A DNA stretch of 64,000 nucleotides from an uncultured Acidobacteriota bacterium. GTDB lineage: Bacteria; Acidobacteriota; Vicinamibacteria; Vicinamibacterales; UBA8438. Position 1 is the stretch's first letter, and every line of letters starts with the position of its first letter. The stretch is taken from NCBI GenBank assembly GCA_913043225.1, contig CAJWLU010000006.1, positions 45,465 through 109,464 of the forward strand. Direction: 5' to 3'. This document shows, piece by piece, positions 5-19,390 of the stretch. The translations under genes and the position numbers were made by a program. The notes below the pieces were generated by a model. That model saw only the letters and a list, made by a program, of their open reading frames with translations, did not search any database and was not told where the DNA came from.

Positions 5-1048
5 ATGGCAATGAGTGGACGGCACATGAGATGGAGCCTCGGCGCGATGGTGCTCGGCCTCGCGCTGGCGGCGGAGCCGGTCGCGGCGCAGATAGAGGGG
101 TATGCGGCGCCCCGGACGGCCTGGGGGACACCCGATATCGGGGGGGTGTGGAACAGTTCCACCGTGACTCCGTTGCAGCGACCCGAGGAGCAGGCCGACA
201 AGGAGTACCTTACCGAGGAGGAAGCGGCTGCGGTTGAGCAGCGTGTCGTCGAGGCCAACGCGCGTGCGAACGCCCCGAGCGAGGTCCGGACCGAGCCGTT
301 GCCGGTAGGTGGTAACGTCGGCGGCTATAACAGCTTCTGGCTCGATCGGGGTACCACCGTGGTGCCGACCCGCCGGACATCGCTGGTGGTCGATCCGCCG
401 AACGGGCGGTTGCCGGCGTTGACCCCAGCGTACGAGCGCCACGTGACGTCGCGGGAGCGGCAGCGGATTAAGGACATTCGCGAGGGTGCCGTGCCGGCCG
501 AGTCCTACGCCCAGTTCGATTATGGCGACCGGTGCATCTGGTACCGCGGGGTGCCATCGTTGCCTACGGCCTACAACAACAACTACCAGCTTGTGCAGAC
601 CGAGGACGTCATCGCCATTGTGCAGGAGCACATCCACGATGTGCGGTTCATCTTTTTGGACGATCGGCCGCGGGTCCACGGCATTGATCAGTTCGGCGGA
701 CATTCGCGCGGACACTGGGAAGGCGACACCCTCGTGGTGAAGACTTCCGGGTTCGGGGATCGAGCCTACCTGTTCAGTCCGGGGGGCGGGCCGCAGGGCG
801 GGACAAATTGGGATCTAAGCGGCCAGCACACGGTGGTGGAGCGGTTCACCCGCGTTGCACCGGATGTGCTGGATTACCAGTTCACTGTGGCCGACCCGCA
901 TACGTGGATCACGCCGTGGACCGGATCTTCTCCGTGGGCGAAGGGCGATCTCCCACTCTACGAGTACGCCTGTCATGAGGGTAACTACGGTATGGAGAAC
1001 ATCCTGGCCGGGTCGCGGATGGAGGAACTGGCCCAGGGTGGTCAGTAG
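5..1048 (+). CDS. Exported protein of unknown function, EYACHEGNYG-motif family, paralog P1
   Basis: 347-aa ORF with N-terminal signal peptide (LGLALAAEPVAAQ). Shares colinear blocks with the ORFs starting at 17179(+), 33252(+) and 58985(-): G.PD..G.W, TPL.RP, YN.FW.DRG, RTSL.VDPP.GR.P, DRC, YNNN, SRG.WEGDTLVV, ERFTR, YEYACHEGNYG..NIL.G.R. I recognise no named family. Confidence 0.8.
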   Translation: MAMSGRHMRWSLGAMVLGLALAAEPVAAQIEGYAAPRTAWGTPDIGGVWNSSTVTPLQRPEEQADKEYLTEEEAAAVEQRVVEANARANAPSEVRTEPLPVGGNVGGYNSFWLDRGTTVVPTRRTSLVVDPPNGRLPALTPAYERHVTSRERQRIKDIREGAVPAESYAQFDYGDRCIWYRGVPSLPTAYNNNYQLVQTEDVIAIVQEHIHDVRFIFLDDRPRVHGIDQFGGHSRGHWEGDTLVVKTSGFGDRAYLFSPGGGPQGGTNWDLSGQHTVVERFTRVAPDVLDYQFTVADPHTWITPWTGSSPWAKGDLPLYEYACHEGNYGMENILAGSRMEELAQGGQ

Positions 1049-2717
1049 AACGCTCAGCCTGCTTGTCGCGGCGGCCGTTTTAGCGCCGGCGTGTGTTCCG
1101 TCCAACGAGGGCGAGGTGCAGCCGGCGGGCCTGCCGTTCGATGTGGTCGAGGCCACCGTCCCTGCTATGCAGCGGGCGATGGAGGAGGGGCGGGTGACTT
1201 CCCGCCGGCTGGTCGAGCTGCACCTCCAGCGAATCGCTCTCTATGAGGAAGAGATCAACGCGCTCATTTCGGTGAACTCGCAGGCACTCGAGGAGGCCGA
1301 CGGGTTGGACGCTGAGCGGGCGGCGGGACACGTGCGTGGTCCGCTCCACGGCATCCCGGTTGCGCTCAAAGATAACGTCCATACCACCCATCTCCCGACA
1401 ACGGGAGGCACGCGCGCCTTTGCGGGATTCGTCCCGCCATATGAAGCGACGCTGACCAGCCATCTGCGGGAGGCGGGCGCGATCATCCTTGCCAAGACGG
1501 TGATGACCGAGCTGGCTAACTTCACCGCACCGGGTATGCCAGGGAACTACAGCGCGGTGGGTGGGTTCGGCCTCAATCCGTACGATGCCAGGCGGGATCC
1601 CCGGTCGGGGCGAGACGATGGTCGACCAGTGATGGGGACCGGAGGATCGAGCTCGGGGATCGGGACGGCGACGAGCTTCTGGGCTGCGAATGTTGGGACC
1701 GAGACGTCTGGCTCCATCCTTTCGCCGTCGAACGCCAACATGCTGGTCGGGGTGAAGCCGACCGTTGGTCGGATTAGCCGCTGGGGCGTTATCCCGATTA
1801 CGGCGGATCAGGACACGGCCGGGCCGATGGCGCGGACGGTTACCGATGCCGCCATTTTGCTTGGGGTGTTGGAGGGAGCCGCACCGGATCCACAGGACGA
1901 CGCGACGAAGCGTTGTGAACGTCCGCCAGACAACGACTACACGGCATTCCTGAGTGCGGACGTCTTGACGGGTGCGCGAGTTGGGATCCCGCGGGCGCTG
2001 TATTACGACGGGGTGTTGGTGCCGGGGCGGCAGGAGCGGCGCCGCGGGCGGCTCTCGAGCGCGGGGCGGGCACTGATGGCTGACGCTATCGAGGTGCTGG
2101 AGTCGGCAGGCGCGACGGTTGTTGACCCGGCCGACATTCCAAGCGTGATCGACCCCGATCCGTCGACCAATCTGCTTGTGTCTGGCCGGTCGAGCAGTGT
2201 GCTGTCCTATGGGATGAAGCGGGACTTCAATGCCTGGCTTGACTCGCTCGGGGACACCGCGCCGGTGAAGACGTTGACGGAGCTACGGGAATGGAATCTG
2301 ACCCATGAGGCATCCGGTACCCTGAGGTACGGACAGGGTCGCTTGGACGGGGCTGACAAACTCGACCTGGAGGCCGACCTTGCCGCATACGAAAGGGACC
2401 GGGCTCGGGACCTGTATTTGAATGGTGAGCACGGTATCGACGAGGTCATGCAGGAGTTGGATCTCGACGCGTTGCTGTTCCCAGGGTCTAGCGGAGCCAG
2501 TATTTCCGCGCGCGCTGGCTATCCGACGGTGATCGTGCCGTTCGGTTTCTTGGCCGACCCTCCGGAGCCACGCATGCCGGACGGTTTTCAGGCCAAGCCA
2601 CGACCGTTCGGGGTGAGCTTCGCCGGCATGGCGTGCAGCGAGCCGACGCTTTTGGGGCTAGCTTACGCTTTTGAACAGGTGACCCGGAGACGGGTGCCAC
2701 CGCCGGAGTTTCCGTAG
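1038..2717 (+). CDS. Amidase (amidase-signature family), predicted lipoprotein
   Basis: ORF 855-2717. Start placed at GTG 1038 because the text from there reads [19 protein letters not shown] (lipobox) and overlaps the P1 stop (1046-1048). Catalytic Lys context IPVALKDN. Gly/Ser-rich signature [26 protein letters not shown]. Confidence 0.88.
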
Positions 2718-2734
2718 CTGATCGGAGAGACGTC

Positions 2735-4453
2735 ATGAAGCATCGCAGGGTCCGTTACAGGGCACCGCTGGGCGCCGCTATGGTCTTGGTGATGACAGGC
2801 CTTGCGACACAGGCGACCGGGCAGGCCGTGGGAGTGTCGACCGAGTTGCTCCGGAGCGCGCCCTCCGGAGAGTGGCTGACCACCGGTCGCGACCAAGCCG
2901 AAACCCGGTTCAGCCCGCTGGATCAGGTCAACCTCGAGACCATCGACCGCCTCGGTCTTGGCTGGAGCTGGGTGATCCCGAAGGCAGGTGCTCGGCTCGA
3001 AGCGACCCCAGTGATCTCAGACGGGGTGATGTACGCGACCGGGCCCAAGAGCTACGTCTTTGCTCTCGATGCCCGTACGGGTGAGCTGCGCTGGCAGTGG
3101 GATCCTGGCGTTCCGGACGAATCAGAAGGCGGTCCGAGCGTCTGCTGCGGTGACGTCAACCGAGGGGTGGCCCTCTTCGAAGACAAGGTCTACGTCGGTC
3201 TGCTCGACGGTCGGCTGGTGGCGCTCGAACGGGAGACCGGGCTAGTGGCCTGGGCGGTGCAAACCACGCCCCCGGGCGACTACAGCATCACCGGCGCCCC
3301 GCGTATCGTGAAGGGCAACGTGGTGATTGGCAACGGCGGCGCTGAGTATGGTGTTCGTGGCTATGTCACCGCCTACAACGCCGAGACGGGCGAGGAGGTG
3401 TGGCGTTCCTATACCGTGCCTGGCAATCCTGCGGACGGCTTCGAAAACGAGGCGATGCGTGCGGCGGCCGAGACCTGGACGGGCGAGTGGTGGGTGGTTG
3501 GCGGTGGCGGCACGGTCTGGGACGGTATGGCTTGGGACCCGCAGGCGGACCTGCTCTACATCGGCACCGGGAACGGTGCACCGTGGAACCGCGATCATCG
3601 GAGTCCGGGCGGTGGGGACAACCTCTATCTCTCGTCGATCCTCGCGTTGAACCCTGACACCGGGGAGCCAGTGTGGCACTACCAGACAACGCCGGGCGAC
3701 GACTGGGACTACACGGCGACTCAGCCGATGATGTTGCTGGATCTCACCATCGCGGGCCAGGAGCGGAAAGTGATCATCCAAGCGCCAAAGAATGGCTTCT
3801 TCTATGTGGTTGATCGGCTGACGGGGGACCTCATTTCGGCCTCGGCCTTCGGCGATGACGTGACTTGGGCGGTGGGTGTAGATGTCGACACGGGCCGTCC
3901 CATTGAGACCCCCGAGGCACGTTATGGGCGTACCGGCGTCGGTGTCTTCCTGTCGCCCGGCCCGGGCGGGGCACACAACTGGCCGCCGATGTCATGGAAT
4001 CCAGGCACCGGCCTCGTCTATCTTCCGGCTCAAAACAGCACCTCCTACTACCAGATGACCGACGACTTCGACTATCAGCCTGGCCGATGGAATACCGGGT
4101 TGGCGCGCACGCGTCGTGCGGAACGTCCAGAGCGTCCGGAGCTGACCGGGCCACGCACCATGCTGGTGGCGGTCGAGCCGGTGACCAATACCGAAGCCTG
4201 GCGGGTGGAGACGAGCGGCGCGCATGGAGGCACGATGTCGACCGCCGGGAACCTCGTGTTTCACGGCTCGGGCGAGCGCCTGGTGGCCTACAACGCTGAA
4301 ACCGGGGATGAGGTGTGGGCGGCGACGGTAGGTGCGGGAACCGCGACGCCGGTGACCTACGAGCTCGACGGGATGCAGTATGTAACTATCGCCGCCGGGC
4401 GCCGCACGCCCAGGGTCTACACGTTTGTGTTGGACGGCGTGCCGGTGCGGTGA
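2735..4453 (+). CDS. PQQ-dependent dehydrogenase (quinoprotein alcohol-dehydrogenase-like), PQQ-1
   Basis: 572-aa ORF 17 nt after the amidase stop, with a signal peptide. Repeated propeller motifs ([65 protein letters not shown]). Vicinal Cys pair in [10 protein letters not shown] as in quinoprotein alcohol/methanol dehydrogenases. Confidence 0.9.
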
Positions 4454-4460
4454 GGACCGG

Positions 4461-5720
4461 ATGGGGATGAGGATGCAGGCGGGCGAGATCGACCGACGAA
4501 CGGCGCTTGCGATCATGGGCGCGACCGGGGCGGGGCTGATCGCGGGGCAGGGTTCAGCCTGGGCCCGGCAGGTGGGAATCGAACCGTTCGAGATCCAGGT
4601 GAGCGACCAGGCCCTGGACGACCTTCGGCAACGTCTGTCGGTGGCCCGCTGGCCGCCAGAGACGCCCGGGGCGCCGTGGCACTACGGAACCGACCGCGCT
4701 TACCTGGAAGAACTCGTCGCGTACTGGCGTGACGAGTACGACTGGCGCGGCCACGAGCGAGCGCTCAATGAGTTCGACCACTACATAACCGCCGTGGAAG
4801 GGCAGCGGCTGCACTTCGTGCATCAGCGTGCCGCCGACCCCGACAGCCTGCCGCTGCTAATGACTCACGGATGGCCCGGTACGGTCTGGGAGATGCTTCC
4901 GTCGGTGATGGCGTTGAACGAGCCGACGCAGCACGGCGGCGAAGCGACGGACGCCTTCCATGTCGTGGTGCCGTCGATCCCGGGGTTCGGCTTCTCTGGT
5001 GAGCCGGCTGAGGGGACGGACGTGGCGCGGACGGCTGAGCTGTGGATCGGGCTGATGGACTCGCTCGGCTACGCGCGGTTCGCCGCCTATGGCAGCGACT
5101 GGGGGGCCGGGGTGACCCGCTATCTCGGGGCACAGTTTCCCGACCGGCTGGTCGGTATCCACACGCCGGGTACGCCCGGCCGACAGCAGCGGGACCCGGC
5201 CACTGACGAGGAGCGTGACTACCTCCGTCGGAGCGAACTCTGGTCGGTTGACGAGACCGGATATCAGCGCATTCAGGGCACGAAACCGCAGACGCTGGCC
5301 TACGGGTTGACCGACTCACCGATCGGGTTGGCGGCGTGGATCACCGAGAAGCTCCGCAGCTGGAGCGACTGTGACGGTGCCGTCGAGCGCCGGTTCAGCA
5401 AGGATCAGATCCTGACGCTTGTCTCGATTTACTGGCACACGAATACGATCGGCACGAGCGTGCGCTACTACCATGCGAATGGACTGGGGAGCTCACGAGC
5501 GGGCAGCCGGCGTCGCGGTGGTCCGGTGCGGGTGCCCCAGGGGCTCGCGCAGTTCGAGGGTAATCCCTTCCGCAACCGAATGCCTCGGTCGTACACACGG
5601 GAGGTGAGTGACTCGATTCGGCACTACTCAATCTTCGATCGCGGCGGGCATTTTCCCGCCATAGAAGAGCCAGAACTGCTCGTGGGCGATCTACGTACCT
5701 TCTTCCGCCCGTTGCGTTAG
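4461..5720 (+). CDS. Epoxide hydrolase-type alpha/beta hydrolase with twin-arginine leader
   Basis: ORF 4425-5720. Start placed at ATG 4461 (GAGGA just upstream, 7 nt after the PQQ-1 stop). Leader IDRRTALAIMGATGAGLIAGQGSAWA. Epoxide-hydrolase N-terminal region (FEIQVSDQALDDLRQRL..ARWP), HGWPG oxyanion motif, Asp nucleophile context YGSDWGAG. Confidence 0.88.
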   Translation: MGMRMQAGEIDRRTALAIMGATGAGLIAGQGSAWARQVGIEPFEIQVSDQALDDLRQRLSVARWPPETPGAPWHYGTDRAYLEELVAYWRDEYDWRGHERALNEFDHYITAVEGQRLHFVHQRAADPDSLPLLMTHGWPGTVWEMLPSVMALNEPTQHGGEATDAFHVVVPSIPGFGFSGEPAEGTDVARTAELWIGLMDSLGYARFAAYGSDWGAGVTRYLGAQFPDRLVGIHTPGTPGRQQRDPATDEERDYLRRSELWSVDETGYQRIQGTKPQTLAYGLTDSPIGLAAWITEKLRSWSDCDGAVERRFSKDQILTLVSIYWHTNTIGTSVRYYHANGLGSSRAGSRRRGGPVRVPQGLAQFEGNPFRNRMPRSYTREVSDSIRHYSIFDRGGHFPAIEEPELLVGDLRTFFRPLR

Positions 5721-5974
5721 GGCTGTGTGGTGGATATTTCGCCGGCGGTCAGCGCCGGAATCAGTAGAAGGGGATCACGCTGGCTGGCAGCAGCTGGGCA
5801 CGGCGCAGGTAGGCGGCATCGGCAGCACGCTGATCAGTGCATCTCCCTGACGCATCACGAGTCGACGGTTCAGTCGGTCGTAGTCGGCCTCCTTCCTTGT
5901 TTTGCATCAGTTCCTACCTGCTGAGCCGGGCGGTCTGACCCGCCCGGCAGTCCAGACGATCCTCTCGTGACCGG

Positions 5975-5980
5975 TATAAT
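5975..5980 (+). promoter_or_regulatory. Candidate -10 box TATAAT (context CCGGTATAATC)
   Basis: Perfect TATAAT in a GC-rich 283-nt intergenic region, 23 nt upstream of ATG 6004. The same extended context recurs at 43625 and, with one change, at 42213. No convincing -35. Confidence 0.4.
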
Positions 5981-6003
5981 CACGCTCTCAGCTGGAGCTT
6001 GAT

Positions 6004-7050
6004 ATGTTTCGATGCCTGGTCGTGGCCTCGCTCGTTGTCGGTCTGTGCGGCGTCGCCGTGGCACAGCCGCGGGATTCCTATGAGTTGATCGAACCGTGGC
6101 CGCATCTGCCGGTGGAGATGAACGGTGGGGAATGGGGCGAGACCATCGGGGTCGATCGCGATGCCGACGGGAACATCTGGGTGTTTCACCGATGCTTCAA
6201 CGACGAGCCGTTCGGACTGGCCACGTGTGTCGGCCAGGAGGACAAGCCTCCGATTCTCAAGTTCAGCCCGAAGGGCGAACTTCTCGCTAGTTGGGGCGAA
6301 GGGATCTTCGCAGCTCCGCACGGTTTTCACATCGATCCTGAAGGGAACATTTGGGCCACTGAGGCGAACCAGCACGAGGAGGTGCTTGGCATCCCAGTGG
6401 GCAACCGGGGCCATCAAGTCTTCAAGTTCAGCCCGCGCGGCGAACTCCTGATGACGCTGGGCGAGGCTGGGGTCGCCGGGAACGGCCCGTACACGTTCAA
6501 CCGGCCGACCGACGTTGCGGTGGCGGCGAACGGCGATATCTTTGTCACCGACGGACACGGTCCGAATAACCGGGTTGTGAAGTACGACCGGACGGGGCAT
6601 TTCCTGATGAGTTGGGGCGGGCCTGGCGACAGCCCTGGTGAATTCGATCAGCCTCACACCCTTACACTTGATTCCCGTGGTCGGGTTTTTGTGGGCGATC
6701 GGTCGAACGGTCGGTTGCAGATCTTTGAGCCGGATGGCACGTTCGTGGCCGCGTGGTCGCAGTTTGGGCGGCCGAGCGGCATGTTTATCGACGAGAACGA
6801 TGTGCTTTATGTGACAGACTCCACCACGAACTCACGTAACAATCCGGGACGGAAGCGCGGTATCTACATCGGCAGTGCCGTGAGCGGAGAGGTAACTGCG
6901 TTCATTGCGGATCCGGATCTTGAAGCCCAGGACCGTAATGGCATTTCTGGCGCGTCGGGTATCACAGCCGATCTCGACGGGAACGTCTATGCGGCTGATG
7001 TTGGCCCGAAGCGCATCCGCAAGTATCAGCGAGAGGGACACGAACAATGA
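6004..7050 (+). CDS. NHL-repeat beta-propeller protein (peptidyl-alpha-hydroxyglycine lyase-like), exported
   Basis: 348-aa ORF with a signal peptide. Repeated blades of the NHL type (FNRPTDVAVAANGDIFVTD, FDQPHTLTLDSRGRVFVGD, RPSGMFIDENDVLYVTD, ASGITADLDGNVYAAD). Confidence 0.75.
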   Translation: MFRCLVVASLVVGLCGVAVAQPRDSYELIEPWPHLPVEMNGGEWGETIGVDRDADGNIWVFHRCFNDEPFGLATCVGQEDKPPILKFSPKGELLASWGEGIFAAPHGFHIDPEGNIWATEANQHEEVLGIPVGNRGHQVFKFSPRGELLMTLGEAGVAGNGPYTFNRPTDVAVAANGDIFVTDGHGPNNRVVKYDRTGHFLMSWGGPGDSPGEFDQPHTLTLDSRGRVFVGDRSNGRLQIFEPDGTFVAAWSQFGRPSGMFIDENDVLYVTDSTTNSRNNPGRKRGIYIGSAVSGEVTAFIADPDLEAQDRNGISGASGITADLDGNVYAADVGPKRIRKYQREGHEQ

Positions 7051-8660
7051 TGAGACGCACCTTTATTAGCGTCGTGCTCATCGCCCTGACCGCCGGGTCG
7101 GCCACGGCGCAGGAATTTCCTCCTGGGTTCGTCGATCCCGCGCCGCTGTTGGCGGCCGCCGAGGTCGAGATCAATGCGGCCGCCCTTCGTTGTATCAGCT
7201 TTTCGGGAAATGGCTACAACGGGGCTGTAGGGCAAACGTTCGAGAACGCGGTGAACATCGATTGGCCACGCATCGGGTCACTGAGCAACTACACCCGCGT
7301 GATCAACTGGAACACCGAGACCAGTATCGAAACGTTTGAGCGTGAGCCCGGCTTGAATCCAGCCTCGTGGAAGTACGGGCTGGGCTGGATCGGCGGTACC
7401 CCGACGCAGCAGGCGCGCCAGCAGACACACATCACGGTGGGCGGGCAGTCGTGGCACATTGACGGCGACGGCGAGCCGGTGGCGATTCCTCCAGAAATTG
7501 CGGAGGTCTACCGTCTCGATATGTGGCTGAACCCGCATGGTTTCCTTAAGGCAGCGCGGCTCCCGGGGGCCGATCCGGTGGCCTTCTGGCGCTGGGAGCA
7601 GATTGAGAAGGGCCGTGATGGCAATGTGGTGGCGCCGGTGAAGATGCACGTGGTGGCGATCACCATGTTCGGCAAGTACCGGGTCGACGCCACGATCAAC
7701 CCGGACAATCAGATCCAGCGGCTGAAGACCACGGTCAACGATCCCACGCTGGGCGATTTCAACATCGAGCACGAGTCGACCAATCAGGTCACGGTGAACG
7801 GCATCAAATGGCCGACCAACTGGCACTCGCACCAAGGGTGGGACGACAACTGGCAGTTCTTTCGGCAGAGCACTGGCCACAATGCGTATGGCGGTAGTTT
7901 CCCGGACATCGTGGCCAACACCTGCCCTGACCCGGTGACGGTGCCGCAGGCGGTTCGCGACGCAAGCTTCCCTGCGCCGGTGACGGTCGATGAGATGGCC
8001 GACGGGGTCTATCGGCTAGGTGGCGGTCCGGCCAACAGCTATATGGTCGAGTTCTCGGACTTCGTAGCGGTGTTTGAAGCGCCGGGCGACGAGCGACGCA
8101 GCCTGACCGTCATCGAGGAGGTCGTCAAGCTGGCGCCAGGCAAGCCTATCCGCTGGTTGATTTCGTCCCATCCGCACTTTGATCACATCGGTGGACTGCG
8201 CAGCTATTTGCACATCGGGTCGACCATCGTGACCCATATGTCGAATCTGGAATTCCTGAACACCGATGTCTTGACCTATGAGTCGAGGACGGTCGAGCCC
8301 GACATCGTCTCGCTATGGCCGCCAACCGAGCTATCGGAAGGCTACAACTACGAGGCGATTCAGGAGCGCTACACCATCACCGATGACGAGCGATTGCTGC
8401 ACGTCTACTATGTGCAGCCGTTGCAGCATGTAAGTGGAATGCTCATGGCATTCCTGCCCGAGGAAGGAATTGCATTCCAGGCTGACCTGTTCGATACGCA
8501 TGAGCCACCGAAGGCGGCCCAGCTGCCGGCGATGCGCAGCTTGAATACCCAGGTCGCACGGATGGGGCTCGACGTGGGGACTCTGGCCCCGGTGCATGGC
8601 GCACCGGTGCCGTGGAGTGAGTTTGTATCTGCACTACGGACGCTCGAGGCACAGAACTGA
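7047..8660 (+). CDS. Metallo-beta-lactamase-fold hydrolase with unrecognised N-terminal domain, exported
   Basis: 537-aa ORF. ATGA start/stop overlap with the upstream gene (7047-7050). Signal peptide VVLIALTAGSATAQ. C-terminal half carries ISSHPHFDHIGGL (HxHxDH). The N-terminal ~300 aa are not recognised. Confidence 0.8.
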   Translation: MMRRTFISVVLIALTAGSATAQEFPPGFVDPAPLLAAAEVEINAAALRCISFSGNGYNGAVGQTFENAVNIDWPRIGSLSNYTRVINWNTETSIETFEREPGLNPASWKYGLGWIGGTPTQQARQQTHITVGGQSWHIDGDGEPVAIPPEIAEVYRLDMWLNPHGFLKAARLPGADPVAFWRWEQIEKGRDGNVVAPVKMHVVAITMFGKYRVDATINPDNQIQRLKTTVNDPTLGDFNIEHESTNQVTVNGIKWPTNWHSHQGWDDNWQFFRQSTGHNAYGGSFPDIVANTCPDPVTVPQAVRDASFPAPVTVDEMADGVYRLGGGPANSYMVEFSDFVAVFEAPGDERRSLTVIEEVVKLAPGKPIRWLISSHPHFDHIGGLRSYLHIGSTIVTHMSNLEFLNTDVLTYESRTVEPDIVSLWPPTELSEGYNYEAIQERYTITDDERLLHVYYVQPLQHVSGMLMAFLPEEGIAFQADLFDTHEPPKAAQLPAMRSLNTQVARMGLDVGTLAPVHGAPVPWSEFVSALRTLEAQN

Positions 8661-8684
8661 TTGAATTGGAAGGGGAGGTCTCTA

Positions 8685-9782
8685 ATGAAGAAGCTGATAG
8701 CGCTGATTCCCGGGCTTGCGTTGGCTGCGTGCTCGTCGTCGCCCGAGGCCACCACGGCGCCCGATGAGGGCGCTGCTGGCGTGGTGATGCGGCCGGCGCC
8801 CGGCGTCGACATCGATCGGAGCGCTGCGCCAGGACAGGTGGTCGACCAGGATGGACGACCTGGTTGGTATCCGCATGAGGGTGCGCTGATGGAGTACAGC
8901 GTGGACATTCGGTTCGGGCAGGAGCCGCACACGATGCCTGACGGCTGGAGTTTTGGCAGGGTGTCGGCGGTAGCGACGGACTCGGGCGGTGACGTCTACG
9001 TATTCCATCGGGGTGATGTGGCAGATCCGATCGTGGTGTTCAACGCCGCGGGCACCTACCAGCGGTCATTTGGTGCGGACATGGACTTTGGCAACGAGCA
9101 TGGTCTTCGGATCGATCGGCACGACAACGTGTGGGTGACCGACAACGGGAACCACCGTGTGATGAAGCTCTCGAAAGAGGGCGAGGTGCTGATGAGCCTT
9201 GGCATCAAGGGCGAAGCTGGCACTACCGATGAGACATTCGACCGCCCGGCGGATATCGCCTTCGGACCGAACGACGAACTCTACGTGGCTGACGGTTACG
9301 GCAACAGTCGCGTCGTGAAGTACGACGCCGAAGGCAACTTTGTGACCACCTGGGGTACCCCTGGCTCTGGCCCCGGCGAGTTCGATCTCGTTCACTCCGT
9401 CGCGGTGGATTCGACTGGACGCGTGTATGCCAGCGACCGCGAAAACAATCGCATACAGATCTTTGATGCTGATGGCACGTTGCTCGACACTTGGAACCAC
9501 CTGGGCGCTACTCAGAACATCTTCATCACCCCGGACGATCAGGTATGGGTGATTACCCATCGCGACAACGTCGAGAACATCACTTACGACACCCTGGCCG
9601 GGCGCATCATGCACGTAGACATCAATACCGGTGAGATTATCGGAGCGATGGAAAGTCCGGGGCACTGGATTGACGTGGCCGAGACCGGCGACATCTTCAT
9701 CGGCAGCCTCACCGGCAATGTGTTCCGGTGGTACGAGGACTGGATGGAGACGGAGGAGGCGGCACAGGCTGAGCGACCGTAG
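8685..9782 (+). CDS. NHL-repeat beta-propeller lipoprotein
   Basis: ORF 8661-9782. ATG 8685 (GGGGAGG upstream) gives lipoprotein leader MKKLIALIPGLALAAC. NHL-type blades (FDRPADIAFGPNDELYVADG, FDLVHSVAVDSTGRVYASD, NNRIQIF). Confidence 0.78.
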   Translation: MKKLIALIPGLALAACSSSPEATTAPDEGAAGVVMRPAPGVDIDRSAAPGQVVDQDGRPGWYPHEGALMEYSVDIRFGQEPHTMPDGWSFGRVSAVATDSGGDVYVFHRGDVADPIVVFNAAGTYQRSFGADMDFGNEHGLRIDRHDNVWVTDNGNHRVMKLSKEGEVLMSLGIKGEAGTTDETFDRPADIAFGPNDELYVADGYGNSRVVKYDAEGNFVTTWGTPGSGPGEFDLVHSVAVDSTGRVYASDRENNRIQIFDADGTLLDTWNHLGATQNIFITPDDQVWVITHRDNVENITYDTLAGRIMHVDINTGEIIGAMESPGHWIDVAETGDIFIGSLTGNVFRWYEDWMETEEAAQAERP

Positions 9783-9975
9783 TGGACAATGGGAAGAGGC
9801 GCACTCGCGCTAGGCCGCCACGTGCGGGGACAGACCTGAGTTGGAGTTCGCTCTTTGGGCCGTTGGCGTAGTGGTGCTGCCCATGGGGCGCTTGTGGAGG
9901 GTTGGAGGATGACATGTTCAGGAACCTGCGTAGAGTTGAACTAACCCATCTATGCGATGGTGGAAAGGGGGCACG

Positions 9976-10593: not shown

Positions 10594-10782
10594 GAGGCGC
10601 CAGCGCGCTGCACGATGGTGACAGGGTGTGCTGGGTAAGACGAAGTGACGGGCGCGTAGGCCGTGGCGCGGTTACTCGGGTGGCCCTATAACGAGGCCGA
10701 CCCCGAACGCCCACCTGTGTCGGCGAGAGTCGGAAAGATGGCCGATCTGTCTGGTGAAGCCTAGCTGTGGCGAGGGAGCAGC

Positions 10783-11645: not shown

Positions 11646-11705
11646 CGATTGGCTCCTTTCTTCGCCAGCGTAGCCTACGGGCACCGAAGAGCGCCAGTCG
11701 ACGAC

Positions 11706-11711
11706 TATAAT
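11706..11711 (+). promoter_or_regulatory. Candidate -10 box TATAAT (context ACTATAATCGGC)
   Basis: Perfect TATAAT in the divergent intergenic region 11646-11755, 44 nt upstream of ATG 11756. Confidence 0.4.
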
Positions 11712-11755
11712 CGGCTCGTTCTCTCGTAGCAGCAAGATCGAAGGAGGTCGTCCGA

Positions 11756-12766: not shown

Positions 12767-12778
12767 GTGGGGAGCGCG

Positions 12779-14338
12779 ATGGCAAGGTTGAGGCGGGTGG
12801 GCCTAGCCTTCGCCACGGTCATCGCCTCGCTTGGTGGCTGCACGTCCCCGGAACGGCCATTGGTGCCGGTGGAGCCTCTTGAAGTCACCGAAGCCTCTAT
12901 CGCCGAATTGGGTGAGGCGATGGCGATGGGGCGGGTCACCTCTGAGGAACTGGTCGAGCGCTATCTTGCCCGAATCGGGGCTTACGACCAGCAAGGCCCG
13001 GCGCTGAATACCATCATCGCGTTGAATCCGGATGCGTCGGATGCGGCGCGTTCGTTGGATGAAGAACGGGCGGCGGGTAATGTCCGGGGCCCCCTACACG
13101 GCGTCCCCATCCTGATTAAAGACAACTACGACTTGGCAGGGATGCCCACGACGAACGGTTCAGTCGCATTGGCGGAACTGATGCCGCCAGATGACGGCTT
13201 CCAGGTGCGTCGGCTCAAGGAAGCCGGCGCAGTTATCCTGGGCAAGACGAATCTGCACGAGTTCGCGCGCGGCATCACGACGGTTGGCTCGAGAGCAGGG
13301 CAGACGCGGAACCCGTACGATACGGAGCGGAATCCCGGGGGGTCGAGCGGCGGAACGGGCGCGGCTGTAGCCGCCAGCTTTGCTGCAGTGGGCATGGGTA
13401 GCGATACCTGTGGGTCGATCCGGATTCCGTCCGCACACAACAACTTGACTGGCCTGCGCGGCACGCAGGGTCTATCTAGCCGAGACGGCGTGTTCCCACT
13501 GTCTCATACTCAGGATATCGCTGGACCTATGGCGCGGTCGGTCACGGACCTGGCCCTAGTGCTCGACGCGACAGTGGGGTCCGATCCAGCCGATCCGGCA
13601 ACGGCTGACGCTGACGCGAACATCCCAATTAGCTACGTGACCGGGCTCGACGCCGGAGCCTTGGCGTCGGCGCGGGTGGGGGTGCTTCGGGGCTACGTTC
13701 GCCAGGGCCCGGAAGATGATGCGGTGGGGGCGGTGTTTGATGGAGCTATGGAGGACCTGGCTCGTCTTGGTGCGGAGGTTGAAGTGGTCGCGATCGACGG
13801 CCTGGCGCAGTTGCTCGACAGCTATGTTGTTTTGAGCAGCGAGTTCAAATTCAGTGTGGAGGGGTATCTGGCCGCCGTCGAGGACGCTCCAGTTTCGACA
13901 CTGGACGCAATCATCGCGGATGGACGCTACGACGCCAGCATAGATGAGCGTCTGAACACCTCCAATGCCGTCACGACGCTTGACACGGCGGAGTATCTCG
14001 AGGCGTTTGCGCGTCGCGCGGAAACGGCCGCCCGGATCATTGCGGTGATGGATGAACGCGATCTGGATGCGTTGCTGTACCCGACCATGCGACAGGTGGC
14101 AGCGGAGATCGGTCGCCCGCAAGGCGGCGATAACTGTCGGATTAGCGCGAATACGGGTCTGCCAGCGCTAACCGTGCAGGCCGGGTTTACCGACGAAGGG
14201 ATGCCGGTCGGCCTGGAATGGCTGGGTCGTCCATGGTCGGAGTCCCGGTTGCTGGCCTTGGGCTATGCCTATGAGCAGGGTACTCGCCATAGGAGAGCGC
14301 CGGCGAGCACTCCTGTGCTGGGAGAGCGGGCGCAGTGA
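12779..14338 (+). CDS. Amidase (amidase-signature family), predicted lipoprotein
   Basis: ORF 12767-14338. ATG 12779 gives MARLRRVGLAFATVIASLGGC (lipobox). VPILIKDN catalytic Lys context and GGSSGGTGAAVAASFAAVGMGSDTCGSIRIPS signature. Confidence 0.88.
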   Translation: MARLRRVGLAFATVIASLGGCTSPERPLVPVEPLEVTEASIAELGEAMAMGRVTSEELVERYLARIGAYDQQGPALNTIIALNPDASDAARSLDEERAAGNVRGPLHGVPILIKDNYDLAGMPTTNGSVALAELMPPDDGFQVRRLKEAGAVILGKTNLHEFARGITTVGSRAGQTRNPYDTERNPGGSSGGTGAAVAASFAAVGMGSDTCGSIRIPSAHNNLTGLRGTQGLSSRDGVFPLSHTQDIAGPMARSVTDLALVLDATVGSDPADPATADADANIPISYVTGLDAGALASARVGVLRGYVRQGPEDDAVGAVFDGAMEDLARLGAEVEVVAIDGLAQLLDSYVVLSSEFKFSVEGYLAAVEDAPVSTLDAIIADGRYDASIDERLNTSNAVTTLDTAEYLEAFARRAETAARIIAVMDERDLDALLYPTMRQVAAEIGRPQGGDNCRISANTGLPALTVQAGFTDEGMPVGLEWLGRPWSESRLLALGYAYEQGTRHRRAPASTPVLGERAQ

Positions 14339-15246
14339 CGTCCCGGGTCTCAAAAGAGCGTGGCTGGAGCCGGGATGTTGCTGTCTGGAGTGGCATTGCC
14401 CTGCTGGTGGCCTGTGTTGTCGCCGTGGCACTCCCGGCCTCGACTGAGGCGCAGTCGAGGCCAGGAGACCTCGAAAGCCTCCTGACCCGTGCAGGAGCCC
14501 AACTCGAAGAGCACTATCAACGTGCCCAGCGGATCGTCTCGACCGAGAAGGTGTGGGTGCGGTCCTTCCACCGCAACATGCGGTCGAACGGGTCGCCCCG
14601 GCACATGGAGTTCGAGCATCGTGTGGAGTGGGACGCCGCGGGTGCCGGGCTACCGCCTACCGTGACGGTCTTCCGGGACCTTCTGCAGGTGGATGGGCGT
14701 TCGCCTACGGCGGATGATCGGGACGCTTGCCTGATGCCGGTGGAGGTCGACCAAGATCCCCTGGCGATGCTTCTTCCATATCGACAAAAGGAGTTTTCGT
14801 TTCGATTGGTCGGTGATGAACGGGTCGACGACCGCCAGACGACCCGGGTCGCCTACGAACCGCTCGAACAGGGGGACCCGAAGATTACTTGGGAGGACGA
14901 CTGTGTCTCGTTGGAACTCCCCGGACACTCGGCGGGCGAGCTCTGGATCGACCCCGAGACAGGCGACGTGGTCCGGTTGGACGAGCATCTGATGGGCCGT
15001 TTTGAGTTCAGAGAGCCGCCCGAGCGGGCCAGGGACATTCCCGCTCGTCTGACGCTCGAAAGGTCCGAACTCAGCATCCGATACAACCGGGTACGCTTTG
15101 AGGACCCACCAGAGACGCTCATGCTGCCGGAGGCGGTCGAGAGCAGTTGGACGTTGGTCGGGCCGAGCTTCGTGCCACGTTATGTGCGGCGGCAAGAGTT
15201 TTCGGACCATCGCCGGTTCGTGGGTGACGGTCGTATTGTGCGATAG
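14335..15246 (+). CDS. Hypothetical exported/anchored protein
   Basis: 303-aa ORF. GTG start overlaps the amidase TGA (GTGA, 14335-14338). One N-terminal hydrophobic segment (VAVWSGIALLVACVVAVALPASTEAQ). No family recognised. Confidence 0.6.
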   Translation: MTSRVSKERGWSRDVAVWSGIALLVACVVAVALPASTEAQSRPGDLESLLTRAGAQLEEHYQRAQRIVSTEKVWVRSFHRNMRSNGSPRHMEFEHRVEWDAAGAGLPPTVTVFRDLLQVDGRSPTADDRDACLMPVEVDQDPLAMLLPYRQKEFSFRLVGDERVDDRQTTRVAYEPLEQGDPKITWEDDCVSLELPGHSAGELWIDPETGDVVRLDEHLMGRFEFREPPERARDIPARLTLERSELSIRYNRVRFEDPPETLMLPEAVESSWTLVGPSFVPRYVRRQEFSDHRRFVGDGRIVR

Positions 15247-15256
15247 GCGTTCGAGA

Positions 15257-15268
15257 CTGATACCATCT
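15257..15268 (+). promoter_or_regulatory. Candidate extended -10 element CTGATACCATCT (TG-n-TACCAT)
   Basis: Lies in the 59-nt gap before the selenoprotein gene, 37 nt upstream of ATG 15306. The identical 12-mer occurs 42 nt upstream of ATG 49919. Fits the TGnTAnnnT pattern. Confidence 0.3.
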
Positions 15269-15305
15269 GACGGTTGAAAGTCGTGTGGTCACAGGGAGAT
15301 ACGCG

Positions 15306-16493
15306 ATGAAACGAGTGTTCATAGCCCTCGCCGCGGGGGTGTTGTTCTTCGTGGCAGGCGATGCACGGGCGCAGACCCAGCAGCCTGTCGAACCGGCGCA
15401 CGGTGTGCTCGATCCGGACGCCACCACTGACGATCTCGGGATCGACATCCCGATTCCGGTGTCATACCCCGCTCGGCGCTATCCCGCGTCGCACGATTTC
15501 CCAAGTGGACCCGGTATCGGCGAACGCCTACCTGAATTCTCGCTACCGAACCAACATGGGGAGTTGGTGGATTTCCACGCCGACCGTGGCGAATCAAAGT
15601 CGGTCGTGGTGTTCTACCGCTCGGCCGTATGGTGACCGTACTGCCGTACGCAGCTGGTCGAGCTGCAGGACAACTTGGAATTGTTTCAAGCGGAAGGCAT
15701 CAAGGTCTACGGCATCAGCTACGACACCTCCGAGCAGCTGCTCGCATTCGCGAGTGACTACGACGTGACCTACGACCTGTTGGCTGATGTCGACTCCGAG
15801 GTCATCAAGACATTCGGGATTCTAAATACCCTAATTGAACCGGATGACCCTGAGCAGAGTAGTGCGGGACGAGGCTTCTACGGCATGCCCTTCCCGGGTG
15901 TGTATGTCACAGACGGCAACGGCGTGGTGACCGAGAAGTTTTTTCATCGTCACTATGGCACCCGTGAGTCCGCCGGCGCGATCCGCGACTCGGCGCTCGG
16001 CGAGATCCTTGTTCGGCACGAAGTGCCCGTAGTGGAGCTAGCTAACGAGCAGGTCAAGATTTCGGCGTTCACGTCAGATCCGTCATTACAATTCGAGACG
16101 CAGACCATGGTCTACGTTCGATTCGAGCTGGAGGATGGATTGCACATGTACGGGCGTCCGCTTCCTGACGGCTACATTGCGTCGGAAGCGACCATCCCCG
16201 ATATTTCGGGCCTCCGGGTGGGCGAGGCGCGGTATCCACCCACGCATGAGCAAGAGTTTCCGCTCCTGGGCGTCACGTTGAATGTCTATGAGGGCGTTGT
16301 CGATGTGGCCATTCCGGTAACGCCGAACGCGGAGCGGTTCACGTCTCGGTTGTCGCAGGAGGTGGATATTCCGATTGAGGTGCTGTTCCAGGCCTGTAGC
16401 GACACCATCTGCTACACGCCGCGGACGGAAACATTGTCGGTGACCCTGCCGATCGAGCCTTTGCTGCGTTCGGGAGAATCAAGGAACCGGTGA
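15306..16493 (+). CDS. Exported thioredoxin-fold (AhpC/TSA-redoxin-like) + DsbD-N-terminal-like protein with in-frame UGA: predicted selenoprotein (U-x-x-C)
   Basis: ORF-track pieces 15285-15635 and 15675-16493 are in the same frame, interrupted only by TGA 15633-15635. ATG 15306 (GGGAGA upstream) gives signal peptide MKRVFIALAAGVLFFVAGDARAQ. The read-through text is SKSVVVFYRSAVW-[TGA]-PYCRTQLVELQDNLELFQAEGIKVYGISYDT. This is a W-C-x-x-C redox motif with TGA at the first Cys (codon 110 of 395). The C-terminal ~250 aa resemble the DsbD N-terminal domain (EVLFQACSDTICYTP). Confidence 0.75.
15646..15671 (+). other. Candidate bacterial SECIS hairpin
   Basis: Upper stem GCAGCT (15650-15655) pairs perfectly with AGCTGC (15661-15666). 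Apical loop GGTCG (15656-15660). Lower pairs C15649-G15668 (A15667 bulged), T15647-A15670 and G15646-C15671. The loop GGUC lies about 24-27 nt after the U of UGA. As I recall, the E. coli fdhF SECIS has the same loop sequence with G23/U24. Confidence 0.55.
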
Positions 16494-17077
16494 TGGTCGA
16501 GGACACGCTCGCACCGTATGTCATCGAGGAGGCCCGGTCGAGCCGTTCGCGATGTCGGACTTGCCGGAAGAAGATCGAGAAGGGAAAGCTGCGCCTCGGT
16601 ATTTTGCTGGAGGGCCCTTATGGCACCGGGTATCTCTGGCACCACCTGACCTGCGCGGCGAGACGAAGACTCGAGGACGTGGAGGCGGCCTACGCCCAGC
16701 CTGCGTTCGAGAAGGGCCTGAAGGTCCCGGCGCTTGAGAAGCTGCAGGCGCTACAGGAGAAGGCTGAGAAGGAGCGCGCCGACCGAAAGGAGTTGCCCTA
16801 CGTTGAGAAGGCGCCTACCGGACGGTCGAAGTGCAAGCGTTGCGGTGCAGGTATCGAGCAGGACAGTTTCCGCGTGGTGCTCGCCCGTGAGGTGGCCTTC
16901 GGTAGCCAGGTCCGGAGTGGCCCCATTAACGTGCATCCGAAATGTGTGGCCGAGGAACTCGACACCGAAGACTGTATGACCGAGGTAGAGGGCTTCGGCG
17001 AGGCGCTCCACGCGCACAGCGGCCTTGACGCCGCCACGGTCGACGCGGCTCTGGCCGAGATAGGTTCCCTGGGCTAG
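16493..17077 (+). CDS. Tandem PARP-type zinc-finger protein (no catalytic domain)
   Basis: ATG 16493 shares its A with the upstream TGA (16491-16493). Two C-x2-C-x(26-30)-H-x2-C units sit in zf-PARP-like text: YVIEEARSSRSRCRTCRKKIEKGKLRLGILLEGPYGTGYLWHHLTC and YVEKAPTGRSKCKRCGAGIEQDSFRVVLAREVAFGSQVRSGPINVHPKC. No signal peptide. Confidence 0.7.
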   Translation: MVEDTLAPYVIEEARSSRSRCRTCRKKIEKGKLRLGILLEGPYGTGYLWHHLTCAARRRLEDVEAAYAQPAFEKGLKVPALEKLQALQEKAEKERADRKELPYVEKAPTGRSKCKRCGAGIEQDSFRVVLAREVAFGSQVRSGPINVHPKCVAEELDTEDCMTEVEGFGEALHAHSGLDAATVDAALAEIGSLG

Positions 17078-17081
17078 ACGC

Positions 17082-17087
17082 TAGAAT
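17082..17087 (+). promoter_or_regulatory. Weak candidate -10 box TAGAAT
   Basis: In the 101-nt gap upstream of P2, 91 nt before ATG 17179. TAnnnT pattern only. Confidence 0.25.
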
Positions 17088-17178
17088 TTTAGGTGCCTTC
17101 GGCAAGGGATGGGTTTATCCGGCGGTAACCAAGAGTTGTCTCGATCGAGTGCCGACTAAGAAGCAAGGAGAGGATTCG

Positions 17179-18210
17179 ATGAGCAAGTGGCGCACGTCGA
17201 CCAGTGTCGTGGTCTTTACGTTGGCAATCGTGGTCGCGGGTCCGGTTCTCGCGCAGGAGGCATGGACTCTGCCGCGCACGGCAGACGGCGATCCCGAGAT
17301 CGGTGGGGTCTGGGACTTCCGTACGCTTACCCCGCTGCAGCGTCCTGGAGATGCGGCTGAGCAGCTGACTGATGAAGAGGCGGCGGCCATCGAGGAGCGT
17401 TCCCGCCAGGCGGCGATTGAGGCCGACCGGCCCAGCGAAATACGCACCGAACCACTGCCGGTCGGTGCGCCGGTGGGCGGCTATAACAACTTCTGGTTCG
17501 ACCGTGGTGCGGGTGTCGTCGATGACAACCGTACGTCGCTTATCGTTTCCCCGGCCAGCGGGCGCGTGCCGGCTCTGCAGCCGGGCGTCGAAATGGTACG
17601 GCTCTCGCTAGGCGAGGACATTCCGGGCGGACAGCCGGTGCGCGTCCGTGCGGCCGGCATCGGGGCCTCTCACTGGAAAGACCGCGGCCTGGCTGAGCGG
17701 TGCTTGCTGGGCTTTAATTCAGGGCCTCCCATCGTGCCGGCCGGTTACAACCAGAACTTTCAGGTGTTTCAGACCAAGGACCACGTGGTCATTCTGCACG
17801 AGATGGTGCACGACTCGCGGATCGTGCCGCTCGACCGGAGGCCGCACCTGCCCGAGAGCATTCGGCAGTGGATGGGTGATTCCCGGGGCTACTGGGACGG
17901 CGATACGCTGGTGGTGGAGTCGAAGAATTTTACGGACCAAACCTCGAGCTTCAGCCCGTCGGTGACCATGGCGGCCGGCGACGGTACCACGCTGAACCTG
18001 ACTGAACGGTTTACGCGGGTGGCAGACGATACGCTGCTGTATGAGTTTACCGTCGACGACCCACAGACGTTTACTGAGCCGATCGTGGCCCAGATTCCTG
18101 TGAAACGCGGCGATATGATGTTCGAGTACGCGTGTCACGAAGGCAATTATGGGCTGGATAACATCCTGCGCGGCGCCCGCGAAGCCGAGCTCGCGGCTGC
18201 CGGCCAGTAG
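17179..18210 (+). CDS. Exported protein of unknown function, EYACHEGNYG-motif family, paralog P2
   Basis: ORF 17149-18210. ATG 17179 is preceded by AAGGAGAGG. Signal peptide (VVVFTLAIVVAGPVLAQ). Same blocks as P1/P3/P4 and ends ...FEYACHEGNYGLDNILRGAREAELAAAGQ. Confidence 0.85.
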   Translation: MSKWRTSTSVVVFTLAIVVAGPVLAQEAWTLPRTADGDPEIGGVWDFRTLTPLQRPGDAAEQLTDEEAAAIEERSRQAAIEADRPSEIRTEPLPVGAPVGGYNNFWFDRGAGVVDDNRTSLIVSPASGRVPALQPGVEMVRLSLGEDIPGGQPVRVRAAGIGASHWKDRGLAERCLLGFNSGPPIVPAGYNQNFQVFQTKDHVVILHEMVHDSRIVPLDRRPHLPESIRQWMGDSRGYWDGDTLVVESKNFTDQTSSFSPSVTMAAGDGTTLNLTERFTRVADDTLLYEFTVDDPQTFTEPIVAQIPVKRGDMMFEYACHEGNYGLDNILRGAREAELAAAGQ

Positions 18211-18280
18211 GGAACGATTCAGCAGCTTGGGTGCCGCCAGACCGCCTTGGGGCGCGGCGGCGGCCACGTCTTCAGAAACC

Positions 18281-19390
18281 ATGGCTGGTGTCACACGTCG
18301 GAGCTTTGTGGGGCGAATGGGCGCGGGGGCGGTTGGTGCCGCAGCCGCAGGCCTCTTGCCAATGGCGAGACAGGTGCGTGTGCGGGCGCAGCCGCGACAG
18401 AACTGGCTCGACCTGACTCCAGAGCCGGCGCTCGAGCCGGCTCTGCCTATCATCGACCCACATCACCATCTGTGGGACCGCCCCGGCAACCGGTACATGC
18501 TTGAGGAGTTACTCGAGGATACTGGAACGCACAACGTGCGTCAGACGGTGTTCGTGGAGTGTTCGTCGATGTATCGCGCTGACGGTCCGGAAGAGCTCCG
18601 GGTGGTGGGCGAGACCGAGTTCGTGCAGGGCGTCGCTGCTAAGAGCGCGAGCGGTCAGTATGGCAACTCGCGGATGTGTACGGGCATCGTCAGCTCGGCG
18701 GATCTCTTGCTGGGCGACCGTGTTGCGTCAGTCCTCGAGGCACATCAGGCGGCGAGCCCACAGCGGTTTCGGGGCATTCGACACCGTGCGGCGTGGGCCG
18801 AGCCGCCGGTGGTGGGTCGGCGCACACCCGGACCAGAGCACCTGCTGCTCGACAGCGAATTCCGGCGCGGCTACGCCCATCTTCGAACGCATGGCCTGAC
18901 CTTCGAGGGCTGGCTCTACCACACCCACATCGCGGACCTCGCCGATCTGGCTGGAACGTTCCCCGATACAACCATCATCCTCAACCATCTGGGTGGTCCG
19001 ATCGGAATCGGTCCCTACGCTGGGCGTCAGGACGAGGTGTTCGACGTGTGGCGGTCAGCGTTGACCGAGCTTGCGAAGCACGAGAACGTGGTAGCGAAGG
19101 TGGGTGGCATCCAGATGGTAGTAAATGGCTACGGCTGGCACGAGCAGGAGCGGCCACCGTCGTCGGACGACTTGCTGGAGGCGAACCGGCGTTGGTACGA
19201 GCACACCATCGAAGCGTTTGGTCCGGGTCGCTGCATGTTCGAGAGCAACTTTCCTGTCGACAAGCTGTCCTGTTCCTATGTGGTGCTCTGGAACCAGTTC
19301 AAGAAGCTGACTCGGGGCTACTCGAGCGATGAGCGGGCGGCGATGTTCCACGACACCGCTCAGCGCGTGTATCGCCTCACGCAGCTGTAA
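18281..19390 (+). CDS. Amidohydrolase-2-type metal-dependent hydrolase with twin-arginine leader
   Basis: ORF 18149-19390. ATG 18281 gives MAGVTRRSFVGRMGAGAVGAAAAGLLP. IIDPHHHLW (H-x-H) at the start of the TIM-barrel core. Confidence 0.8.
   Translation: MAGVTRRSFVGRMGAGAVGAAAAGLLPMARQVRVRAQPRQNWLDLTPEPALEPALPIIDPHHHLWDRPGNRYMLEELLEDTGTHNVRQTVFVECSSMYRADGPEELRVVGETEFVQGVAAKSASGQYGNSRMCTGIVSSADLLLGDRVASVLEAHQAASPQRFRGIRHRAAWAEPPVVGRRTPGPEHLLLDSEFRRGYAHLRTHGLTFEGWLYHTHIADLADLAGTFPDTTIILNHLGGPIGIGPYAGRQDEVFDVWRSALTELAKHENVVAKVGGIQMVVNGYGWHEQERPPSSDDLLEANRRWYEHTIEAFGPGRCMFESNFPVDKLSCSYVVLWNQFKKLTRGYSSDERAAMFHDTAQRVYRLTQL

Follow-up and report, generated by a model that had tools for sequence, protein, structure and literature searches.

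An unnamed, very large family of exported proteins with a predicted FABP-like barrel, represented by four paralogs in an Acidobacteriota genome

The window analysed here is a stretch of 64,000 nucleotides (nt) from an uncultured bacterium of the Vicinamibacterales (contig CAJWLU010000006.1, positions 45,465 to 109,464), and its subject is P, a protein family encoded in it by four intact genes, P1 to P4, and one remnant. P1–P4 are real paralogs in a very large, so far unnamed exported family, whose members are about 320 residues long and Sec-exported. The structure, modelled for P2 and predicted for every member, combines a barrel of a known fold class with an N-terminal arm and an EYACHEGN motif that are new. 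Small-molecule handling is favoured because of the barrel, which resembles that of fatty acid-binding proteins (FABP), and because of the pattern of conservation. Tentatively, with rather less than an even chance of being correct, P is proposed to be a barrel that carries or captures amphipathic compounds by means of an invariant polar anchor. An exported family that stands alone and diversifies through its paralogs is consistent with the data; an operon-specific accessory is not. The P-family features of the window are the following.

5–1048, plus strand: P1, exported P-family paralog of 347 amino acids, with Sec signal peptide, DRC and EYACHEGN (profile E 5.5e-132)
17179–18210, plus strand: P2, exported P-family paralog of 343 amino acids, the protein used for modelling
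17701–17703, plus strand: Cys175 codon of P2, in the (E/D)RC motif
18124–18147, plus strand: EYACHEGN of P2, residues 316–323, between the predicted last barrel strand and C-terminal helix
33255–34241, plus strand: P3 paralog; the ATG after GGAAGGAG is taken as start (mechanical open reading frame from 33057)
58011–58961, minus strand: P4 paralog; the ATG after AAAGGGAGGG is taken as start (mechanical open reading frame reaching 59087)
55406–55510, minus strand: degenerate C-terminal remnant of a fifth P copy, 27 residues, just downstream of the dehydrogenase gene PQQ-4 (profile E 4e-5)

A tblastn search of the window with P1 and P2 returned four full-length copies with 37–47% identity and E values of 1e-50 to 1e-88 (5–1048, plus; 17179–18210, plus; about 33228–34226, plus; 58014–58952, minus), and a profile built from 141 family members recovered all of P1–P4 at E≤1e-125. 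Together these searches bear out the count of four intact paralogs and one remnant made in the sequence-only reading, an earlier interpretation of this DNA. The remnant reads FEYAYDEGNYGLYSSLARVRAEARQH up to its stop, beginning with FEYAYDEGNYGL, and carries Tyr in place of the Cys and Asp in place of the His. For P3 and P4, translation most likely begins at 33255 and 58961, since the ATG codons there lie behind Shine-Dalgarno-like sequences and line up with the signal peptides of homologous proteins. The ATG of P2 is preceded by a Shine-Dalgarno-like AAGGAG, and a search of the DNA upstream of P2, P3 and P4 for a common motif found none.

Membership of this family, its export signal and its absence from curated libraries are established. 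Neither single sequences nor profiles of 19 and 141 members matched Pfam-A 2025, NCBIfam 20.0 or the sequences of the PDB, and the 141 diverse members, mutually at most about 50% identical, were still without a Pfam, NCBIfam or PDB sequence match when scanned at E≤10. The source name of all family proteins is 'hypothetical protein'. The family had been called unknown and exported from the start, and both descriptions hold, the second through its signal peptides. Clustering at 90% identity gives at least 8000 clusters for each of P1 and P2; at 50% identity, there are 23,313 representatives with E≤1e-3 and 11,662 with E≤1e-10. Carrier genomes belong mostly to the Vicinamibacterales and Bryobacterales (Acidobacteriota), but gammaproteobacteria such as Pseudohongiella and Porticoccaceae carry the family as well, and it is present in Tara Oceans data. 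Plasmids of cultured Novosphingobium encode distant but certain homologs (hhalign probability 99.3%); these were the only ones returned by a search of a plasmid collection and are likewise annotated 'hypothetical protein'. A literature search on the family's taxa and on its context of pyrroloquinoline quinone (PQQ) dehydrogenases found nothing relevant.

The AlphaFold2 model of P2, whose numbering is used throughout, was built on the 141-sequence alignment and reached a predicted local distance difference test score (pLDDT) of 88.7 and a predicted template modelling score (pTM) of 0.85, while a shallow alignment of 19 close sequences gave an unusable model (pLDDT 50). Residues 1–25 form the signal peptide. 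The N-terminal arm, about residues 30–190, is well predicted and mostly non-regular, with one long predicted helix at 65–82. Residues 193–310 are predicted to form ten β-strands of an up-and-down barrel, followed by EYACHEGN (316–323) and a putative C-terminal helix (321–342). The predicted barrel thus fits the calycin fold, a closed antiparallel up-and-down barrel of 8–10 strands. In a Foldseek comparison with the PDB only the barrel was matched, the best targets being FABP, CRABP, CRBP and tardigrade SAHS proteins (E from 6e-4, probability 1.0, about 125 aligned columns, template modelling (TM) score about 0.5 per target), with nitrophorins and lipocalins among the lower-scoring matches. The arm of about 160 residues had no structural match in the same search, and a comparison of the model with viral structures returned nothing. 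Among the options first considered for P, the capture of poorly soluble compounds fits such a predicted barrel, and an enzyme of a new fold finds no support for the C-terminal half, which is of a known fold type.

Conservation is concentrated in polar residues. R174, C175, Q198, E208, R214, E276, R277, Y288, D294, E316, C319, H320, E321, N323 and R334 are conserved in 91–100% of the 141 members. The two Cys and the His described from the window copies recur throughout the family, Cys175 in 141 of 141 members (100%), Cys319 in 96% and His320 in 94%; the Cys count is exactly two in 121 of the 141, and His320 is replaced by Q, N, S or A in five. The Novosphingobium homologs have both Cys (...C..GxP; EYNCLEN, WESPC or YEAVCE) and lack the His. 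Cys175 and Cys319 most likely form a structural disulfide joining the segments before and after the barrel. This disulfide is favoured over a metal or haem site of Cys and His because the distant Novosphingobium homologs keep both Cys and lose the His, an observation that also weakens the metal or redox site considered originally. A comparison of 116 P2-type with 53 P1-type sequences located orthogroup-specific positions in the linker around Cys175 (20 of 60), the barrel (23 of 122), the arm (10 of 101) and the C-terminus (1 of 31). Such a pattern would be expected of a constant centre ringed by specificity-determining residues.

P would accordingly be pictured as a protein that acts alone in the periplasm as a small-molecule-binding barrel, carrying or capturing amphipathic or poorly soluble organic compounds, and it might be catalytic. 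The invariant polar centre (R174, E208, R214, E276, R277, Y288, E316, E321, N323) would recognise a chemical moiety that the ligands share, the subfamily-specific residues around it would set specificity, and the Cys175–Cys319 disulfide would staple both ends of the barrel together. P diversifies by paralogy in islands rich in periplasmic catabolic enzymes, which include PQQ dehydrogenases, NHL propellers, metallo-β-lactamase-fold proteins, amidohydrolases and esterases.

Several observations weigh against a carrier. The match to FABP-like proteins is moderate, with a target TM score of about 0.5 and 8–15% identity, and covers about one third of the protein. The EYACHEGN segment has the lowest confidence of the folded model (pLDDT 74–78), which could reflect a missing cofactor or partner. 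Diverse members share about 40% identity and a dense array of charged residues that do not vary; passive carriers, lipocalins for instance, are not usually so conserved, and an enzyme or a conserved protein–protein interface would be a better fit. For this reason catalysis is the main rival. P would then be a catalytic superfamily of calycin fold, with the Arg/Glu/Tyr/Cys/His cluster as the active site of, for example, a hydrolase, lyase or isomerase, and its paralogs would differ in substrate. Near-invariance of polar residues across representatives this divergent, the clustering of subfamily-specific changes beside the RC motif and in the barrel strands, and arrays of paralogs amid catabolic genes, an arrangement typical of enzyme superfamilies, all agree with it. 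However, P is similar to no known enzyme family, its best structural matches are non-catalytic carriers, His320 is dispensable both in the distant homologs and in the five deviating members, and a disulfide is the simpler explanation for two Cys in an exported protein. Catalysis is therefore judged rather unlikely, if still a serious contender.

A further reading, clearly unlikely in our judgement, makes P a new and widespread periplasmic class of enzymes or cofactor-bearing proteins. Its FABP-like barrel would be stapled by a disulfide, would have an invariant E-x-x-C-(H)-E centre, and would work with the expanded set of PQQ dehydrogenases of marine and soil Vicinamibacterales and Pseudohongiella. 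P would then either be the partner that these dehydrogenases lack for electrons or a cofactor, or catalyse a new step in degrading dissolved organic matter, and it may act as hetero-pairs of paralogs, encoded by a conserved tandem of a P3-like and then a P1-like gene, or together with the small exported protein DUF6152.

For the stand-alone binding barrel, the surroundings of the P genes also provide evidence. In the window these surroundings comprise the following genes.

1038–2717, plus strand: amidase (PF01425), GTG start at 1038, 11-nt overlap with the P1 stop at 1048
2735–4453, plus strand: PQQ-1, PQQ dehydrogenase with signal peptide and WDYTA motif, 17-nt gap after the amidase
4461–5720, plus strand: epoxide hydrolase (EHN plus α/β hydrolase) with twin-arginine leader, 7-nt gap after PQQ-1
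18281–19390, plus strand: Amidohydro_2 (PF04909) enzyme with twin-arginine leader, 70-nt gap after P2
34289–36352, plus strand: PQQ-2, PQQ dehydrogenase with a C-terminal cupredoxin (amicyanin-like) domain, 47 nt after P3
55744–57771, minus strand: PQQ-4, PQQ dehydrogenase::cupredoxin fusion, 239 nt downstream of P4

The 11-nt overlap and the gaps of 17, 7 and 70 nt given in the sequence-only reading are all exact on the window coordinates. Its claim that a P gene comes first in each string of exported enzymes and encodes a general periplasmic accessory is, overall, only partly supported. The twin-arginine leaders it had assigned to the epoxide hydrolase and the amidohydrolase do contain RR motifs (EIDRRTALAIMG and GVTRRSFVG). 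The amidase is confirmed as such, and its description as a lipoprotein is only plausible, with a non-canonical lipobox, LAPAC. A first position in the string, proposed for all four P genes, is firm only for P3 and P4, which lie at divergent junctions; the upstream side of P1 is beyond the window edge (start at base 5), and P2 sits 101 nt after same-strand genes, inside a plus-strand run spanning most of 5–19390.

Other genomes supplied 82 non-redundant loci (87 were fetched, including five duplicates of two contexts), and the context of P genes in them is variable, which is likewise established. More than one P copy is present in 33 of the 87. The next gene is another P copy for 17 of the 116 full-length copies outside the window and another open reading frame for 69; the remaining 30 have no same-strand reading frame within 350 nt downstream. 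The 69 downstream reading frames match 67 Pfam families, each at most three times, the commonest being Beta-lactamase, DUF6152, PETase-like, esterase and PQQ. Similarly, 72 upstream same-strand reading frames match 64 families, each at most three times, including NHL, PQQ, GSDH, TonB-dependent receptor, GDSL lipase and metallo-β-lactamase-fold proteins. This diversity on both sides upholds the earlier view that the family is not tied to one enzyme class. When neighbours are ranked, another P copy is the commonest, followed by PQQ dehydrogenases and, for one subgroup, DUF6152. PQQ dehydrogenase reading frames lie within 6 kb of P in 21 of the 82 loci, with 9 in the first kb and 1–4 per kb beyond; proximity to PQQ dehydrogenases is a modest signal without fixed order or strand.

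The orthologs of P1 and P2 are the most direct comparison. P2-like orthologs (65–81% identity) are in three contexts the last gene after NHL, PQQ, metallo-β-lactamase-fold, Amidohydro_1 or a P copy, and in a fourth have nothing downstream but a truncated kinase gene and a PQQ gene in convergent orientation. P1-like orthologs (73–78% identity) have in two contexts a P3-type paralog upstream, 69% identical to P3 of the window, and downstream a convergent PQQ gene in one and a Phenol_MetA_deg protein in the other; in a third context the ortholog is isolated. An amidase or Amidohydro_2 gene follows the P1-like or P2-like ortholog in none of these seven contexts, and Amidohydro_2 within 5 kb of P was found in the window itself only. 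The position of P ahead of the amidase–PQQ–epoxide hydrolase string and of the amidohydrolase is a local gene order, not a conserved operon. A lack of preference for the first position in other genomes had been named beforehand as the outcome that would speak against P as the head of enzyme strings, and this is what the ortholog contexts showed.

These contexts also bear on the idea that P is a dedicated accessory (chaperone, substrate presenter or maturation factor) co-translated with the enzymes just downstream. The overlap of P1 with the amidase and the short gaps in the window would suit it, as would the higher density of PQQ dehydrogenase reading frames in the first kb and the P3 ortholog in L096, which still adjoins a PQQ-2 ortholog, though divergently. 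Against this stand the orthologs of P1 and P2, which are mostly last or behind another P copy, the diversity of both upstream and downstream families, and the prospect that the P3–PQQ-2 and P4–PQQ-4 pairs go back to one ancient duplication of a module. Such a dedicated role is very unlikely.

The duplication is suggested by the paralogs themselves. PQQ-2 and PQQ-4 share 42.6% identity and are mutually the closest PQQ paralogs in the window; P3 and P4 share 44%, and P4 is the closest paralog of P3, yet P4 matches P2 equally. The P3–PQQ-2 and P4–PQQ-4 modules may thus represent one duplication rather than two independent associations. The PQQ-2 ortholog of L096 (69.5% identity) also carries the cupredoxin domain.

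Within the 64 kb, five PQQ-dependent dehydrogenases of four divergent types are encoded (2735–4453, 34289–36352, 37065–38963, 55744–57771 and 61279–63012). No c-type cytochrome gene lies beside them, the sole CXXCH reading frame of the window being 40941–42053. The cupredoxin domain of PQQ-2 and PQQ-4 is C-terminal, comprises about 100 amino acids with the motif ...YHC(A/T)(D/E)HPW.IGQ..., and has as its best PDB match the cupredoxin domain of a Cu nitrite reductase (E 2e-9), with amicyanins matching at about 3e-4. By sequence, both proteins look like fusions of a PQQ dehydrogenase to a built-in electron acceptor. A link to lanthanides was considered and rejected: the DYD motif is missing from the other PQQ dehydrogenases and is replaced by WDYTA in PQQ-1, which has no Asp where the lanthanide ligand would be and is probably of the Ca type.

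That P is a redox, metal or cofactor protein, in which Cys175, Cys319 and His320 would bind haem, copper or another metal, or an Arg-rich barrel would bind PQQ, and which would serve the PQQ dehydrogenases as electron acceptor or cofactor chaperone, has little chance of being right. It draws on the adjacent Cys-His pair, as in CXXCH, with haem as a split or single-Cys c-type attachment via ...ACH..., on the lack of a c-type cytochrome near the five dehydrogenases, on haem-binding nitrophorins among the weaker fold matches, on the lower model confidence at the motif, and on the pairing of a P subgroup with DUF6152 and its possible His-His mature start. However, CXXCH occurs at the motif in no member examined and is absent from P1–P4, where the motif reads E-Y-A-C-H, and the His is both lost in the Novosphingobium homologs and replaced in 5 of the 141 members. 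PQQ-2 and PQQ-4 moreover bring their own cupredoxin acceptor domain, PQQ-1 is probably Ca-type, and a cofactor chaperone would hardly be expected in tandems of up to six paralogs or, in many copies, next to hydrolases.

Two recurrent gene arrangements involve particular P subgroups. A P3-type gene followed in tandem by a P1-type gene is found in L096 (5931–8062), L097 (5931–8062) and L100 (5878–8059), in contexts that otherwise differ, and hints at hetero-pairing of the subfamilies. P1 of the window lies at its left edge, so an upstream partner could be out of view. One P subgroup stands immediately upstream of the small exported DUF6152 protein, with a short gap or a 4-nt overlap, in six pairs in five loci and in N. 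humi (4-nt overlap). The pairing was noted at the following positions.

L066, 4762–5385 and 7570–7965
L030, 7441–7884
L045, 8319–9620
L085, 5306–5809
L026, 7000–7491
L093, 6480–6863

The DUF6152 protein reads ...AQAHHSF and contains a conserved NPH; its mature start may be His-His if it is cleaved after AQA, and DUF6152 may be a metal-binding partner. A literature search on DUF6152 found nothing relevant. The most extreme tandem expansion of P itself is seen in another Vicinamibacterales genome (L025, 5971–12940), with six paralogs in a row on one strand.

The genes around P2 and P4 offer further observations. A trio encoding an NHL propeller, a metallo-β-lactamase-fold protein (MBL) and a second NHL propeller occupies 6004–9782 (plus) of the window, and NHL, MBL, Amidohydro_1 and PQQ genes also directly precede P2-type orthologs in L005, L088 and L092, which suggests that P2-type orthologs share a loosely conserved gene neighbourhood (NHL/MBL/Amidohydro_1/PQQ). 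Directly upstream of P2, a 195-amino-acid protein (16490–17077, plus) contains two PARP-type zinc fingers (PF00645, E 1e-20), which to our knowledge are unusual in bacteria, and its gene is preceded by that of an AhpC/TSA::DsbD_N fusion protein (15675–16493, plus). Divergent from P4, between P4 and PQQ-5, a 624-amino-acid protein (59296–61170, plus) has a weak linalool dehydratase/isomerase-like (Ldi) domain (E 3e-10). In two rare fusions from the homolog searches the P domain is joined to another, each a single instance and possibly a gene-calling artefact: P0124 (714 amino acids) has an N-terminal CXXCH domain with squalene-hopene-cyclase-like repeats before the P domain, and P0189 (440 amino acids) a Lipocalin_5 domain after it. 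The N-terminal part of P0124 (CXXCH and terpene-cyclase-like) was rejected as a clue to a partner, as it is unrelated to the Ldi-like protein of the window and not recurrent near P genes.

A family of over 20,000 clusters that has several to many copies in each genome but neither a name nor a Pfam, NCBIfam or PDB entry constitutes a sizeable annotation blind spot, which touches abundant Acidobacteriota of soil and ocean and gammaproteobacteria such as Pseudohongiella and Porticoccaceae. Whether P carries, modifies or hands over substrates bears on how its hosts process organic compounds outside the cytoplasm. The family merits a domain definition comprising the N-terminal arm, the FABP-like barrel and EYACHEGN, and the cultured Novosphingobium strains with distant homologs provide a genetic entry point.

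Among known systems, the calycins (FABP, CRABP, CRBP, SAHS and lipocalins) come closest in predicted structure, sharing with P a ten-stranded up-and-down barrel, which in P is placed in the C-terminal third. The conserved Arg and Tyr on the late strands presumably recall the carboxylate clamp of FABP. Sequence similarity is absent, with 8–15% identity, and none of the 141 members matches the Pfam models Lipocalin, Lipocalin_2 to Lipocalin_9 or FABP at E≤10. Unlike FABP-type proteins, P is exported, about 2.5 times longer, and equipped with two invariant Cys, EYACHEGN and a conserved N-terminal arm of about 160 residues without a PDB match; its sequence is also far more conserved than that of lipocalins. 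Lipocalin_5 (PF13924) is, like P, a bacterial exported β-barrel domain, and a Lipocalin_5 protein is encoded 2.5 kb from the P2-like gene in L001–L004, but homology was rejected at an hhalign probability of 0.2%, and Lipocalin_5 is not a recurrent neighbour of P.

The protein partners of PQQ dehydrogenases, namely MxaJ/XoxJ, cytochrome cL/c550 and amicyanin-type cupredoxins, are likewise exported, and P genes are denser near PQQ dehydrogenases than at a distance. P differs from them in having no solute-binding protein (SBP), cytochrome c or cupredoxin domain and no CXXCH; against MxaJ/XoxJ in particular, it has no SBP_bac_3-type Pfam match and is predicted to form a barrel, not a Venus flytrap. 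Its adjacency to PQQ dehydrogenases is unconserved in order and orientation, and many P copies lie beside hydrolases or other P copies. In its genomic behaviour, P may be compared with the Bug/TctC proteins, expanded 'orphan' periplasmic binding proteins of about 320 amino acids with a Venus-flytrap SBP fold and many paralogs among catabolic genes. P has another fold, no sequence relation to them and no associated transporter identified, yet by analogy it resembles them in its similar size, its export, its many paralogs per genome and its scattering among catabolic genes.

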